Assembly (NCBI GenBank): GCA_039794045.1
Contig: JBAMLY010000014.1
Span: 2,509 to 20,403 of the forward strand
Source of the DNA: Candidatus Micrarchaeia archaeon
Lineage (GTDB): Archaea > Micrarchaeota > Micrarchaeia > Norongarragalinales > UBA8480
Direction of reading: 5' to 3'
Length of the DNA: 17,895 nt
Shown: positions 6,001 to 15,000 of the stretch, piece by piece
Numbering within the stretch: the stretch's first letter is position 1
Layout: every line of letters starts with the position of its first letter
Program-made: the position numbers

Positions 6001-9000
6001 CAACGCAAACAGCCTGCACTGTATTCTCCCATTCACAGAATAAGAAAAGCAGCGTAAGCGGTTACTCTATCTCCATTTCCAATTCTACTTGGCCAGTGCC
6101 GCACGGAATGGTTTGACCGATTATAATGTTTTCTGCGACGCCCTTCAAGGGGTCTTCCTCGCCTTTCACGCAAGCATTTATCAAGTGCTTCGCGGTTTCC
6201 TCAAAAGCAGCACGCGCGAGTACTGAAGCTTTCTCGCCAGCCAACCCATGGCGCCCCATGCTCTTGAGCGAGCCCTTGAAAGTCATGGCGTCAGCAATGA
6301 GCATCACGTGGCGCACGTCCACGTCAATGTCTTGCGCTTCAAGAACTTTCACTATCTCGGATATTATTGCGTTGCGCGCCGCCTCTATTCCCAGCACCTT
6401 GTTTATCTCGGCTATGTCGTTAGTAGTAGTACGGTAAGGCTCTACTTCAGGAACCTTAAACACTTCCTCCAAGTTAGAGCCCTCGGTCGCGATCACGTAC
6501 TCGCCATCGCGCTCGATGATGATGGCGCGCGAAATGCCTTTGATTCCGCGCAAGCTCAATTCTTTGAGCTTGTTTGTTATCTTGCGAATGTTTTTGAGCG
6601 TGTCCACTTGCGGCTTTATTGCCACGCCACGCGCTGTCTTCTCGCAGGAAGCAACGCCCTTTATTTTCTTGAGGATTTCGTCGGCAGACAACCCGTACTC
6701 CTTAAGCGCTTCCTCGTCGAAGTCAATGCGTATCACGCGCTTGTCGAAGTCTTCCTTTACTTCCGCGACTTTCTCCAAGCGAACTTCCTCGATAGAAGCC
6801 GCTATCCTGCGGACTTTCGCGTAGTCCTTTGCATACTCTTTCTTTAAGTAAACTTCCATGACTGGATTCTTTGGAGTCTTGCGCGCGTCAACTATTTCCA
6901 CGAGGCGAGTGAAGCCAAGCTGCGCAAGCGAAAGCACGCCCGCGTAGTGGAAAGTCCTCAAAGTCATTTGCGTGCCTGGCTCTCCAATGCTTTGCGCGGC
7001 AACCACTCCCACTGGCTCGCCGTAAGCTATTGACTTGTTGTTAGAGGGGTCAACGCCGTCGTCGCCGTACTTGAATTGAATAACATTTCCCTCGGCGTCG
7101 CGCACGCTCAAGTCTTCTGCCACGGTAACGTCTTGCAAGGCGTTGATCAAGCGGCGCTGCATGTAGCCAGTCTTGGCTGGGTTGACGCCCTTGTCTACTA
7201 CTGCATCGCGCCCGCCTGCCGCGTGAAAGAAGTACTCGAAAGGCGAAAGCCCGTGAGTAAAAGCAGAGGAAACGAAGCCGCGCGCGCTGTCACTCAAGTC
7301 GCCCTTTTTTTGGTGGGGCAGAATGCGGCGCTCGTAACCCGCCCTCATCCTGCGACCGCGAATTGCCTGTTGTCCCACCAAGCCACACATTTGCACTATG
7401 TTTATGAGCGAGCCACGCGCCTTAGAGCGAGCCATTACTACTGCAGGGTTCAAGTGACGCGTTTTCCCGTTGAAGTCAATGACGGTTTTCCTCACGTGCT
7501 TCAAAACCACTTCGTTGCAGTCGTTGCGCACGCCTTCCACTACATTCATAACCAGTTCTTCAAGCGTTTCGCGCAAGCTCTTGCCAGGCTTGCGTTCTAG
7601 CTTGCCGTTCCTGAATTTTTCAACGAGCTCGCGCACCTTATTTCTGCCGTGGCGGTAAAGCTCACGGATCTGGCTGCGTCCTTCTTCGCTCAACTCGTAG
7701 TCTGCGAGGGAAAGAGACAGGCCAGCGAGAGTCACGAAGCGCGAAGAAAGACGAGTTGCTGCATCAATGAATTTCCTGGCTTCCGCGGCGCCTAACTCAG
7801 CGAATATCTCACGAGCTATCTTGTCTATCACTCTGTCGTCAACGTAGCCTTCTTTGAGGACGCCATTCACTATCTTTACTTGGTGTCCTCCCCTGTTTTT
7901 CGCTTCCATCGAAAAATCTTTAGGGAGAATGGCGCTGAAGACTTCCCTGCCGTCAACTACTTCGTCTTTGAAGTCCGCAGTGACTCCAGCGTGGTAAAGC
8001 ACGTCGCACGCTTCCACGCGCGAGAGAAACACGTCGTCAGTCAAAAGGTAGATGCCGCTCAAGTGGTCCAGCGTCGGCACGACTAACGGCTCGCCGTTCC
8101 TCGGCGACAAAATGTTTTGCTCTACCTTCATTAAAAGCTCGGCTTCAGCGCGGGCTTCCTCGTTTTGAGGAACGTGAATATTCATTTCGTCTCCGTCAAA
8201 GTCCGCGTTGTATGGCTTGCACGCAGCAACGTTCAACCTGAAAGTCTTGCCCGGCATTATCTTAGCCGAGTGCGCCATCATGCTGACGCGGTGAAGCGAG
8301 GGCTGGCGGTTGAATATCACTGTGTCCCCATCCATCAACTGCCGCTCGACCACAAAGCCTGGCGCGAGCTCGGAAAGAACTTCTTCCACATTAGCTGGAG
8401 TAATCTTCTTGCGTCTCCCGTCAGGCCGCACAATGTAATTTATTTTTTGGGGGTTCTCGCGAATCACTTGCTTCAAGGATTCAATGTTCCACGAAGTAAC
8501 TCCTTCCGGAATCGTGAGCTCGGAAGCAATAGCTTCAGGAATTCCTATCTCGTTTATGCCTATCACGGCATCAGGAGAAACCACGGTGCGCGCACTGAAG
8601 TTAACGCGCTTGCCACTCAAATTGTACCTGAAGCGCCCCTCTTTTCCTTTCAAGCGCTGAAACAACGTCTTCAACTGCCTACCAGAACGGTGGCGGGCCG
8701 GCGGAATTCCAGCCGTCTCATTGTCAAAATAAGTTATCACGTGGTACTGCAAAAGCTCCCACAAGTCCTCTATGATGAGTTGTGGAGCGCCAGCGTCAAT
8801 GTTTTCCCCCAAACGCTGGTTTATGCGCAGAATGTCTACCAGCTTGTGTGTCAAATCGTCTTCGCTGCGCTCGCCTGTTTCCAGCGTAATCGAGGGACGC
8901 ACGGTAACCGGCGGAACTAAAAGCACCGTCAAAACCATGTTTTCTGGGCGCACGCTCACGCCAAGCTTCTTCAAGTCATCGTCTGGAATGCGTTCCAGCC

Positions 9001-12000: not shown

Positions 12001-15000
12001 CGCTTGTTCTTGGTCTCGTCAGCCTCCAAATTCAACAAAACATCGTTTTGAACTTCTACGTCGGGAGAAAAAGCCTCCAAAATCTTTTCGTTCTTTTCCA
12101 AGCCGAGAGCGCGCAACAACAAAACTAGTTCCAAGGACTTGCTATAAGAAGGCATTGAAGCCGAAAGCCTGCCTTCCACCGTGCGGTCAACAGTGCAACG
12201 CCCACGGAAGCCAAGGCGAGTAGAAAAAATTTTGGCGCTAGTAACCCCCTTGTCTTTGTCGCGGCTCACGAGAATGCGGTTGGGAGCTAAGTCCTCCATC
12301 GTCATCAAAGTCTTTTCAGTGCCATTGATTATGAAATAACCACCAACGTCTTGCGGGTCCTCCCCCAATTCCACGAGCTCTTGAGGAGTCTTGCCGTGCA
12401 AGTAACACAAATTACTTTTAGTCATGACGGGAAGCTCGCCAACGTAAATGTCTTCCGTCTTCTTTTCAACGCCGTTCAAGACTATAGTCATTTCCAGGAA
12501 GAGAGGAGCCGTATAAGAAATGTCGCGCAAGCGCGCCTCCATTGGGTAAAGCGGGCGCCGCGAGCCGTCAGCCTCGGTAATCATTGGCCTCTCGACGCGA
12601 ATCTTGCCAAGCTTTATCACGAGGCCCTCTATCTGTGGTTCTATCACGCGCTGCGAGTCAACCACTTCCTGGAGCCCCGTGGCAACGAACTTATTGTAAG
12701 AATCAAGGTATTGCTTCACCAAAGAATTCTGCAAGAGATATTGACGTGTAAGTTCCGGGAAAGCCATGCTTGCACCTTCTCAACACGCGCGCTCGCCACA
12801 GTAAGCCACGCGTTAATCTACCACGAGACGGTAATAAAGGGCGTCCTTGCCAGTGGCAGGACTAACCCTAGTAATTTTTATTACGTCGCCAACTTTAGGG
12901 CCGAGAGGAATCAAAGACGGGTCAGTAACACGAATTTTCGGCAGCTTGTCCAACGTCAAACCATAGTCGCTCAAAAGCTTCTTGACTTCCTCTCCAGAAG
13001 CAACCTGCATGCGTGGAACTAAAACGTGGACAGTAGGGTAAGATTCGTGGCTCTCAGGCATCCTAAATCACAGAATCCGACAAATTACCGGCTCGCAGTT
13101 AATACTTATCCCTCAAACTATTTTTAAACCTATCGCTTTAAAGCAAAAAAAAAGAAAACTGTGAGAAGCGCTTTCCTGTCTTCACGCACGCCAGAAAGCA
13201 TTGCCCGGCCCGCCAGCGCCCGAAAATCCGCCCAAGCCGGGCAAGACACCAAATCGAATGCCGAACAACGCGAAAACCAAATCCAACACAGCGACTACCA
13301 CCAACGAGGCAATGCCGGAAACCACGAGCGCTATCACTGCATTGACCCAGTTAAAACCATAAACTTCTTTCAAGGCAAGCAAGGCCAAGTAAAAGCCGTA
13401 AAGGCAAAGCAAAAAAACAAGCAAATTACCAACGACTGGCACCAGCGAAAACACGCCACCGACTACCATGATCGGCGCGCAAAACAAGGCGAACACGTAA
13501 GCAACAACGTCAAAGCTTCCCCCCTTGCCTTTCAAAAAAACCGCTGTCTTGTCGACCACGAAGCAAGCAACGACGAACCCAACAATTGAAGTCACTACCG
13601 AAACCACTACCGCTGAAGCCACGAAACCCAACGCACTCAAAGCACTTCCAGCCACAAGCGCTCCACCAAACGCTCCACGACTCAAGAAAAAGAACGCCGC
13701 AAACCCAGCCAGCACCCCGTAAACGAGTGAAGCAACGCCCACCATCTTAACGCCTTCCACTAAGTCCGCCTTCCCTTTCGCGGCAGCAAAGGCTTCTTCT
13801 GGCTTCAACAAAGCGCTCTTCCACAATTCAATCCAATCCATTAAAAACCACCTTTTAAACACAAAAACAACTCAATTAAAAACCTTTTTCCCGCAAAGCA
13901 AGGCCGAAAACCAAACCAAAAACATTAATTAAAAGCGAGCGCGTAACCCACTTAATGATGTTATCCGACGACGGAATCAAGAAAGCCGTCAAGAAACGCG
14001 AGCTCGAAATCATTCCCTACTACGACTACGCCCTCCTCCCTTCAGCGTACGTCATGCACCTCGGCAAAAACTTTTTGCGTCCAGCGCGCGGTAAGACAAT
14101 CGACGCAGTACACGGGCCCACCGAAAAATACTACAAGCCATTCTCCATAACAGACGCAAAGCCACTACGCTTGAAACCAGGAGAGTTCGTGCTCGGCGAA
14201 ACCATGGAAAAAATTCGACTCTCCAACAAACTCGGCTTAATGATTGAAGGCGTGAGCGCGTTGGGACGCTTGGGCGTCACCGCCGTAATGACTGCCATGC
14301 TCGTCGACTCAGGGCACGGCTGGTTCAAGCCGCGAGCGATAACCCTCGAAATAAAAAACCAGGGCCCCAACACGATAATCTTGCGCCCAGGAATGAAGTT
14401 CTGCCGCTGCGTCTTCTTCCGCCTCGAAACGCCTGCCACGTTCTACAGCGACGCAAAAAGCAAGTACGCCTTCCAAGAAGGAGTAGGCGCGCCCAAGCCC
14501 TTGAACGAATTCGGAGTGTAAAACCCGGCCTTACTTGAACCACTTGCGCGCGACTTCCTCTGAATACCATTGACGCAAAAGCTTTTCAGGCTCCACGCGC
14601 CCCACGAACTCAATCTTTACTGGGAAACCATGGTCCGTCTTGTGACCCATCCAAACTATTGCGCCCTGCCTCCTCTTATGAAGACCCCGCTCTTCAAGCA
14701 ATGCAATCAAACGCGCCACTTTCTCTTTGCTCTCAACAAAGCCAGCCAAGGAAGCCGACTTGAGTTCCTCCGGCCGCACAACAGGCAACAACGTCTTAAT
14801 AGTCGGAAAAGCAGTCTGGTGAATTGGCTTGCCAGTAATTTCCTGCGCGCGCTTGTCTGGCACTACCAGTTTTTCTTTCAGAATCTGGTTAACAGCAACC
14901 AAAACCACGAAAAACACCCCCCAAACATAGGCGAGAAAGTAGTATTAAAAATAAGCGCAAACAAAATAATACTCCCAAAGGAAGGCAGTGAAACAACCAA

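Follow-up and report, generated by a model that had tools for sequence, protein, structure and literature searches.

Absence of the transcript cleavage factor TFS from a micrarchaeal genome and its order

The RNA polymerase operon and its companion factors

The window discussed here is a stretch of 17,895 nucleotides (contig JBAMLY010000014.1, positions 2,509 to 20,403) from the genome of a Candidatus Micrarchaeia archaeon of the order Norongarragalinales. This genome (assembly GCA_039794045.1), hereafter G000, comprises 655 kb and is 92% complete. Positions 6062-13061 of the window hold, on the minus strand, an RNA polymerase operon with the gene order Rpo5, Rpo2N, Rpo2C, and fused Rpo1. All four genes, which had been named in a preliminary description, could be given Pfam domains. 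The operon's first gene (12813..13061) encodes Rpo5 (RpoH), a protein of 82 aa with PF01191 RNA_pol_Rpb5_C at 73.2 bits. It is followed by the two halves of Rpo2, namely the N-terminal half B'' (11301..12767; 488 aa) with Rpb2 domains 1-3 (PF04563, PF04561, and PF04565) and the C-terminal half B' (9463..11304; 613 aa) with domains 4-7 (PF04566, PF04567, PF00562 at 417.9 bits, and PF04560); the two genes overlap by 4 bases. The last gene (6062..9451) encodes Rpo1 (A' + A'') as a single chain of 1129 aa with Rpb1 domains 1-5, and its close homologues measure 1119-1170 aa. The chain aligns with Sulfolobus Rpo1N over residues 99-804 and with Rpo1C over residues 806-1127, and is therefore a true fusion.

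Within the translated Rpo1, the polymerase's own catalytic loop, the trigger loop, is found as the motif GTQMTLRTFHYAG (residues 826-838; 6938..6976, minus strand), which includes His835. Among 30 Rpo1 sequences, Q828, M829, H835, A837, and G838 are invariant. In bacterial RNA polymerase, it is well established that the trigger loop supports factor-independent cleavage. The funnel domain carries an 11-residue insertion, TVIDFNGKTRH (T656-H666; 7454..7486, minus strand), inside PF05000 Rpb1_4 (residues 614-727). This places it where the secondary channel opens, on the path that TFS would take to the active site. In alignment A3 the insertion is present in the window's Rpo1 and its 21 closest relatives (shorter in two) but not in 8 more distant sequences, and it is likewise missing from all 26 genomes examined in nine further families, whether these genomes have TFS or not. 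Judged from these alignments, the insertion is specific to the order.

The polymerase tally in G000 covers Rpo1, Rpo2, and Rpo5; a frame read by eye as RpoP reaches 20.9 bits on PF03604, under the cut-off of 24. The companion factors listed in the preliminary description were each recovered, with profile scores of 53.9-134.5 bits: TFB (68.4 bits for its ribbon, together with two cyclin repeats; contig C7), TBP (101.6 bits, a single repeat), TFE-alpha (53.9 bits), Spt5 (134.5 bits), Spt4 (56.8 bits), and NusA (127.9 bits). The termination factor aCPSF1 is encoded as well. The apparatus is also reshaped in other respects: TBP has one repeat only, and Rpo1 is fused in this order.

Searches for TFS in the genome, the order, and the phylum

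Alongside this polymerase core and TFB, TBP, TFE-alpha, Spt4/5, and NusA, TFS, whose role is to rescue stalled polymerase, is absent in G000. Absence here rests on short zinc-ribbon models, which a cysteine-less, ribbon-less, or non-homologous factor escapes; Sulfolobus TFS3 and TFS2 are described with lost cysteines or a lost ribbon (PMC5715097). How well such models find real TFS can be gauged from a profile (A1) built from 16 real micrarchaeal TFS, which have a compact form of 84-88 aa with the pattern CxxC-24/25-CxxC. In their alignment all 16 share D61, E62, and the cysteines of seven columns; the eighth cysteine occurs in 15 of them. The profile gives 84-127 bits to its training sequences; two fused ribbons outside the training set reach 41-56 bits. 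All of the four archaeal control genomes pass. The cut-off of TIGR01384 (64.75 bits) is too strict for Micrarchaeota, where none of the 251 genomes reaches it and the best score of a real TFS is 41.7 bits. This second model is indeed negative in G000, but it carries less weight than was first attributed to it.

In G000 itself, the best PF01096 match reaches 15.6 bits, below the cut-off of 21, with all 18 candidates scored; this match contains an internal TGA and runs antisense to a 581-aa ORF. TIGR01384 reaches at most 13.8 bits, on a frame that is ribosomal protein S27ae (PF01599, 47.2 bits), and PF02150, the N-terminal Rpb9-type ribbon, at most 10.3 bits. The best matches to the micrarchaeal profile (16.4 to 18.4 bits) fall on a double-zinc-ribbon frame, and a C-ribbon-only profile run by hmmsearch with HMMER filters off over all 15,157 frames gives 9.5 bits at best. 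In terms of architecture, G000 yielded neither an Rpb9-type N-ribbon joined to a C-ribbon within about 85-120 aa (PF02150, TIGR01384) nor a TFIIS-type four-cysteine C-ribbon with its 24-25-residue hairpin (PF01096, C-ribbon profile). No frame exceeds 18.4 bits on the profile carrying D61/E62, the Asp-Glu pair at the hairpin tip of TFS. A bacterial Gre factor was not found either (best 9.1 bits). With four models and the unfiltered 15,157-frame search negative, the earlier reading that this genome has no TFS holds.

Within the order, 68 genomes were searched, mostly metagenome drafts, 22 of them at least 90% complete. None of these 22 exceeds the PF01096 cut-off, in line with what had been said of the high-quality genomes. 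Once genomes of lower quality are counted too, 5 of the 68 pass, all from genus g15 and with frames of 561-913 aa. The one of these five that was inspected (G016) is not a TFS: it combines an NrdR ribbon, an ATP-cone, and NrdD, and the ribbon scores 67.2 bits on PF22811 versus 25 bits on PF01096, identifying an NrdR ribbon fused to ribonucleotide reductase. The 20.1-bit order match mentioned in the preliminary description is likewise NrdR. With the micrarchaeal TFS profile, no frame in the 68 genomes scores above 19.9 bits; the best matches are Rpo2 and Rpo1 ribbons, the top one being from Rpo2. Four near-closed genomes, G006 (5 contigs), G041 (7), G045 (8), and G030 (9), are also negative. 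No match among the 68 genomes is read as a true TFS.

For the phylum, the sample comprises 251 Micrarchaeota genomes, and all counts are to be read as 'not found in those searched'. About 18 of them encode a TFS ribbon that carries the Asp-Glu pair; all belong to families f13 and f14, which apparently correspond to the Micrarchaeum/Mancarchaeum group and include a sequence entered as Ca. Micrarchaeum sp. A_DKE. At E<=1e-5 the TFS profile finds 19 of the 251 (17/65 in f13, 2/47 in f14), compared with 0 of 138 genomes from the other families. Even within f13 genera the distribution is patchy (3/7 in g45, 3/8 in g46), and among the single-contig f13 genomes G083, G098, G161, and G278 are negative and G169 is positive. 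The earlier statement that most Micrarchaeota lack TFS is thus well founded. The absence from high-quality and closed relatives (none of 22, with near-closed and single-contig genomes negative) also speaks for a lineage trait and not an assembly gap, as had been proposed.

It is nonetheless conceivable, if rather improbable, that a true TFS homologue has diverged too far to be recognized or lies in DNA that is systematically lost by metagenome assembly and binning. The models are short, TIGR01384 at its cut-off misses even real micrarchaeal TFS, and most genomes are drafts; odd TFS-like ribbons in f13, some fused to DUF6879 and one in a protein of 187-188 aa whose tip reads RHADVP, show that the ribbon can drift. 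However, these divergent, untrained f13 ribbons were all detected anyway, at 19.8 to 56 bits, whereas nothing in the order rises above the score of an Rpo2 ribbon and every inspected top match has another identity. A gene present everywhere could not be concealed by random gaps of ~10% per genome in 22 of 22 high-quality genomes, and single-contig and near-closed genomes are negative too.

A two-ribbon protein of the order

Another possibility is that TFS has been replaced by an unrecognised factor. The only concrete candidate is A2, a protein of 108 aa with two zinc ribbons (G000 contig C3:17931-18254). It resembles TFS in size and layout and may be able to bind the polymerase. It is nearly universal in the order (61 of 68 genomes, 21 of the 22 high-quality ones), where it co-occurs with the Rpo1 funnel insertion. 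Its order of N-ribbon, linker, and C-ribbon is that of a TFS, and the best whole-length Foldseek rows are Rpb9, A12.2, and TFS4, although these are weak (E 0.011 to 0.07, TM 0.23 to 0.29, rmsd 14 to 23 Å). The basic tip of the C-ribbon (W-K-H-K-E-K) recalls the lysine tip described for TFS4 (PMC5715097). On the other hand, the A2 hairpin counts 15 residues versus 24-25 in TFS and has no invariant acidic pair, and only 30 columns of the N-ribbon align to real TFS profiles (hhalign, 76% probability). A2 was also considered as a TFS4-type polymerase inhibitor, a kind of TFS paralogue with eight cysteines and a shortened basic hairpin. The TFS4 chain 7oqy_Y superposes with Z 2.2 and rmsd 13.9, and it is missing among the A2 HMMER matches at E<=10; these comparisons reveal no descent of A2 from TFS.

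Instead, the C-ribbon of A2 matches the N-ribbon of TFB/TFIIB/Brf1 (PF08271; PDB 1pft, 6cnb chain R) in both sequence and fold. The A2 profile matches 1pft, the TFIIB ribbon of P. furiosus, at E 0.0015, and VIA-align ranks Brf1 (Z 2.9) and 1pft (Z 2.8) above TFS4, with an rmsd of 1.9-2.7 Å over 36-40 residues. PF08271 is precomputed on most of 111 A2 homologues; the G000 copy, at 17.2 bits, stays below the cut-off of 29. Further features are eight cysteines, the short basic tip, a conserved TK..W..FH helix, and the extra N-terminal ribbon. Cyclin repeats (PF00382), for which 108 aa leave no room, are not found in A2; the only ones in G000 belong to the TFB on contig C7. Without a cyclin core, A2 is not a TFB. 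By sequence and fold, A2 is TFB-like and probably not a cleavage factor. As TFS is missing phylum-wide and A2 occurs in this order alone, A2 cannot be a general substitute, and replacement of TFS by such a factor appears unlikely. We would also give only a slim chance to the idea that the mouth of the secondary channel was rebuilt without TFS, the Rpo1 insertion and A2 forming a new polymerase-bound module. If true, this module would in part rescue or control stalled polymerase, or would sit at the former TFS site.

Probable transcription without a cleavage factor

The likely explanation, in our view, is that TFS has truly been lost and that the order, together with most of Micrarchaeota, transcribes without a transcript cleavage factor. 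Backtracked polymerase would then be handled by other means: slow cleavage by the polymerase itself through its trigger loop (His835 being intact), forward diffusion aided by Spt4/5, and the termination factor aCPSF1/FttA clearing away dead complexes. The TFS gene may have been dropped during genome reduction, since lower fidelity and processivity probably cost little enough in a genome of about 0.65 Mb. Genomes in this TFS-less group measure about 0.65-1.6 Mb.

A further idea is that the host supplies the activity: the cells of these archaea are believed to grow on other archaeal cells, and host TFS or host transcripts could cross cell-cell connections. We regard this as very improbable: to our knowledge no import of a transcription factor has been described, and a host TFS would need to fit a polymerase with an order-specific funnel insertion. 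A general host dependence is described for DPANN archaea (PMC12892359). TFS is dispensable anyway in a free-living archaeon (PMC10899632).

Archaeal transcription without TFS has a precedent. According to reviews, nearly all archaea retain TFS, with one named exception: Methanopyrus kandleri, called the only archaeon without it (Brochier 2004, as cited in PMC5715097 and PMC2643942). Like M. kandleri, the archaea discussed here combine an RNA polymerase and the general factors with the lack of a TFS homologue. M. kandleri, however, is one free-living hyperthermophilic methanogen, whereas here a whole order is concerned (68 genomes searched), and TFS is lacking in all but two families of the 251-genome phylum sample. 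In Thermococcus kodakarensis RLV2, deletion of the TFS gene TK0533 left a viable strain with a minor fitness cost under optimal conditions (PMC10899632). That strain resembles the state suggested here, archaeal transcription without TFS, yet it is a laboratory deletion in a species that normally keeps the factor, whereas the loss proposed here would be natural, ancient, and lineage-wide. The methanogen (PMC2643942) and the viable Thermococcus deletion (PMC10899632) make the absence of TFS here less surprising. Canonical TFS/TFS1 (PF01096 and PF02150, TIGR01384) is kept in some f13/f14 relatives, and no such gene is found in the order.

These results also bear on annotation. Two of three f14 S27ae proteins exceed the PF02150 cut-off, and a published table lumps KEGG K03057, which we take to be the TFS orthologue number, with S27Ae. 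As S27ae and NrdR ribbons mimic TFS ribbons, automatic annotation can hide TFS loss.

In short, a rarity known from one methanogen would be extended to a whole DPANN lineage, lending support to the recent genetic result that cleavage-based rescue from backtracking is not essential in archaea. Since natural TFS-free polymerases would here stand beside TFS-bearing relatives of the same phylum, their comparison can show what TFS adds to fidelity and processivity.

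RNA polymerase operon and general transcription factors

The RNA polymerase operon lies on the minus strand of the window at 6062-13061 and encodes Rpo5 (12813-13061), the N-terminal (11301-12767) and C-terminal (9463-11304) halves of Rpo2, and a single Rpo1 of 1129 residues (6062-9451), all on that strand. In an alignment with the Sulfolobus proteins, Rpo1 residues 99-804 correspond to Rpo1N and residues 806-1127 to Rpo1C, so that one protein covers both, a fusion of what are normally separate genes in archaea. Close homologues, including Rpo1 at 65-66% identity, carry the names Candidatus Micrarchaeota and Candidatus Norongarragalinales, and the order is named here on that basis. 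The genome itself comprises 655,099 bases in 16 contigs and is 92.12% complete, with the window on contig C14.

The Rpo1 trigger-loop motif GTQMTLRTFHYAG is intact and conserved, its histidine being present. In the order, Norongarragalinales by the names of its homologues, the Rpo1 funnel domain bears an 11-residue insertion (T656-H666; window 7454-7486, minus strand) at the mouth of the channel that TFS, the archaeal transcript cleavage factor, would enter. All 26 genomes examined from nine other families lack it, 16 of them TFS-negative and 10 TFS-positive. As a correlate of TFS loss in the phylum at large it is therefore rejected, and it marks the order instead. In these 26 genomes Rpo1 is probably split, since the matching frame is only 812-937 residues long. 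Among the close Rpo1 homologues, P0132, P0167, P0174, P0179, P0188 and P0193 reach 1608-1670 aa and contain intein and homing-endonuclease families (PF14890, PF14528), neither of which occurs in the Rpo1 of the window.

Judged by Pfam matches and hydrophobic N-termini, the flanking ORFs (3-1208, 3421-4932, 4943-5560 and 5586-5963) probably encode proteins of the cell surface or membrane, among them one with a CARDB domain and one in which a CarboxypepD_reg domain occurs together with a part resembling peptidase C25. The two directly downstream of Rpo1, 4943-5560 and 5586-5963, are unlike transcription factors, having hydrophobic N-termini and no Pfam match. In other archaea, ribosomal genes and nusA follow the RNA polymerase operon; none stand beside it here, and NusA is encoded on contig C10.

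The genome encodes TFB (its own ribbon at 68.4 bits and two cyclin repeats), TFE-alpha (53.9 bits), Spt5 (134.5 bits), Spt4 (56.8 bits), archaeal NusA (127.9 bits) and the termination factor aCPSF1/FttA (854.7 bits). TBP, outside the window at 39537-39863 of contig C3 (minus strand; PF00352, 101.6 bits), is a single repeat of about 100 aa with no second repeat nearby in the genome. TBP matches were found in 31 of the 34 order genomes at least 85% complete, and each match is a single repeat, the frames measuring 97-182 aa. Our inventory of polymerase subunits covers Rpo1, Rpo2, Rpo5 and a 50-aa frame on contig C6 (1287-1436) that by eye looks like RpoP and scores 20.9 bits with PF03604, under the cut-off of 24.

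Absence of TFS from the genome and its order

The preliminary description held that TFS is missing from this genome and its order. Profile searches of the genome, the order and a phylum sample bear this out: the absence is real and lineage-wide. In the genome, the C-ribbon model PF01096 reaches 15.6 bits at best, in a stretch of contig C13 (4271-4336) that contains a TGA and runs antisense to a 581-aa ORF. The best match of TIGR01384 (13.8 bits; contig C11, 18370-18552) is ribosomal protein S27ae (PF01599, 47.2 bits), and that of the N-ribbon model PF02150 scores 10.3 bits. Further weak ribbon matches are a double zinc ribbon (contig C8, 5415-5654; PF12773, 38.3 bits), a 60-aa frame in which the match to PF01096 extends over nine residues only (contig C9, 101603-101785) and, as read by eye, a probable ribosomal protein L37Ae (contig C1, 1150-1398).

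Because such stock models could miss a divergent lineage, we aligned 16 micrarchaeal TFS taken from the phylum search and built a lineage profile from them. No sequence of this alignment departs from Asp61, Glu62 or seven of the cysteine columns, and the eighth cysteine is present in 15 of the 16 sequences. The best match in the genome scores 16.4 bits. When hmmsearch was run with its filters off over the 15,157 frames of at least 25 residues, the full profile reached 18.4 bits at best and a profile of the C-ribbon 9.5 bits. No bacterial Gre factor was found, the best match scoring 9.1 bits.

In the order, none of the 22 genomes that are at least 90% complete passes the PF01096 cut-off; among all 68 it is exceeded in five, all of genus g15, 68-82% complete and with frames of 561-913 residues. 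The best of the five (genome G016, locus L010) is not TFS: an NrdR-type ribbon (PF22811, 67.2 bits) and an ATP-cone stand in front of an anaerobic ribonucleotide reductase, L010 being the one of the loci L010-L014 whose identity was settled in detail. Being over the cut-off, such fused frames can be mistaken for TFS. The 20.1-bit match previously recorded in the order (G030) is likewise NrdR with an ATP-cone. With the lineage profile, the best match over the 68 genomes (19.9 bits) is the C-terminal ribbon of Rpo2, and matches in frames of about 1140 residues, which might suggest a TFS ribbon fused to Rpo1, represent the ordinary Rpo1 clamp-head ribbon.

Patchy occurrence of TFS in the phylum

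The phylum sample comprised 251 genomes taken evenly from a larger group; two genomes flagged as unpublished (G094 and G241) are counted in the phylum tallies only. PF01096 passes its cut-off in 20 of the 251; inspection assigned one of these to NrdR, one to a transposase and one to a 188-aa protein with the ribbon tip RHADVP, and a ribbon with the Asp-Glu pair is present in about 18. At E<=1e-5 the lineage profile finds 19 genomes, namely 17 of 65 in family f13, 2 of 47 in family f14 and none in other families; a single match among these, of 26 bits and confined to the N-ribbon, is doubtful. Micrarchaeal TFS come in two types, a compact one of 84-88 aa and a long-linker one whose tip reads NDEQ. 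By its record titles, the compact TFS belongs to Ca. Micrarchaeum and Ca. Mancarchaeum.

Some ribbons in f13 occur in longer proteins. Two Asp-Glu ribbons are joined to DUF6879 (L042, 937-1623, in G166; L044, 787-1623, in G088), in proteins of 229 and 279 aa with DUF6879 at 59-62 bits, a G-D-E motif in the C-ribbon and PF01096 at 30-33 bits. An internal ribbon of TFIIS length is found in proteins of 187-188 aa (L053, 418-981, in G120; L061, 1330-1890, in G184), where the tip reads RHADVP, Asp-Val thus replacing Asp-Glu; L053 scores 22.1 bits with PF01096 and matches no other Pfam family.

TFS is patchy even within genera (3 of 7 genomes in g45, 3 of 8 in g46), and among single-contig f13 genomes it is present in G169 and missing from G083, G098, G161 and G278. 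Its neighbours in ten f13 and f14 loci are ordinary chromosomal genes, with neither shared synteny nor phage genes around it.

TIGR01384, cited in the preliminary description as a second line of support, is weaker evidence than was stated there, since none of the 251 genomes reaches its cut-off and the partial matches inspected are S27ae. Matches to its N-terminal ribbon only, which make up the majority of its weaker matches, occur in 105 of the 251 genomes; they could be taken for truncated TFS, and the three inspected were all S27ae. In f14 (L026, L028 and L040) this ribosomal protein mimics the N-terminal TFS ribbon, two of three copies scoring 25.3-26.5 bits with PF02150 against a cut-off of 25.2.

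A candidate substitute and the meaning of the absence

A scan of the genome's frames for two CxxC pairs revealed A2, a 108-aa protein with an N- and a C-terminal ribbon, encoded outside the window on contig C3 (17931-18254, plus strand). It is present in 61 of the 68 order genomes, has a conserved TK..W..FH helix and was found nowhere outside the order; matches of its profile in other genomes of the phylum score 25.7-30.6 bits in frames 301-423 aa long, and the four that were read look by eye like ordinary TFB. In an exhaustive search of 1.84 billion representatives, 35 proteins match at E<=0.001, of which 24 reach E<=1e-10, without any link to TFS.

The AlphaFold model of A2 has a mean pLDDT of 79.1, and its top whole-length Foldseek rows are Rpb9, A12.2 and TFS4, all weak (E 0.011-0.07, TM 0.23-0.29, rmsd 14-23 A). 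By sequence, the C-ribbon resembles the TFB/TFIIB/Brf1 ribbon (1pft, E 0.0015), and its fold compares with that ribbon at Z 2.9 and 2.8, as against Z 2.2 and rmsd 13.9 for TFS4. Its hairpin has 15 residues versus 24-25 in TFS, with a basic tip, and a comparison of the A2 and TFS profiles aligned 30 N-ribbon columns only. An ESM Atlas look-up gave nothing at or above 0.9, the best structural row being a 90-aa Thorarchaeota cluster with PF08271. A2 is not a split-off TFB N-terminus, because the TFB of this genome has its own ribbon. We read it, from sequence and predicted structure, as a small protein that bears a TFB-type ribbon and is putatively a factor directed at the polymerase. Its gene neighbourhood gives no functional hint, each neighbour recurring in 2 of 29 loci within family f1 and no conservation being seen outside it. 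Two genes downstream of A2 (locus L077 on contig C3, 2710-3183, minus strand), a 157-aa ORF matches PF00179, the family of ubiquitin-conjugating enzymes, at 60.5 bits. Confined as it is to the order, A2 cannot account for the phylum-wide absence of TFS.

In the literature searched, we found no statement that Micrarchaeota lack TFS. The words 'transcription', 'TFS' and 'RNA polymerase' do not occur in the main text of PMC12892359, which examined in 2025 how Micrarchaeota lost genes; its Dataset S7 places K03057 alongside S27Ae, and its tables of gene-family gain and loss give arCOG00579 432 members. K03057 is the KEGG number of the TFS orthologue, and arCOG00579 is probably the TFS family. Polymerase subunits, TFB and TBP are named in a comparison of DPANN archaea (PMC8407392), and TFS is not. 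Methanopyrus kandleri is described as the only archaeon without TFS in both PMC5715097 and PMC2643942, and a later deletion in Thermococcus kodakarensis showed that the factor is dispensable (PMC10899632).

For automatic annotation, the ribbons of S27ae and NrdR are a trap, as they mimic those of TFS. TFS-less archaea were known before; the absence in this order and most of the sampled phylum is a new case with a far wider reach. A backtracked polymerase would likely be handled by intrinsic cleavage, Spt4/5 and FttA.
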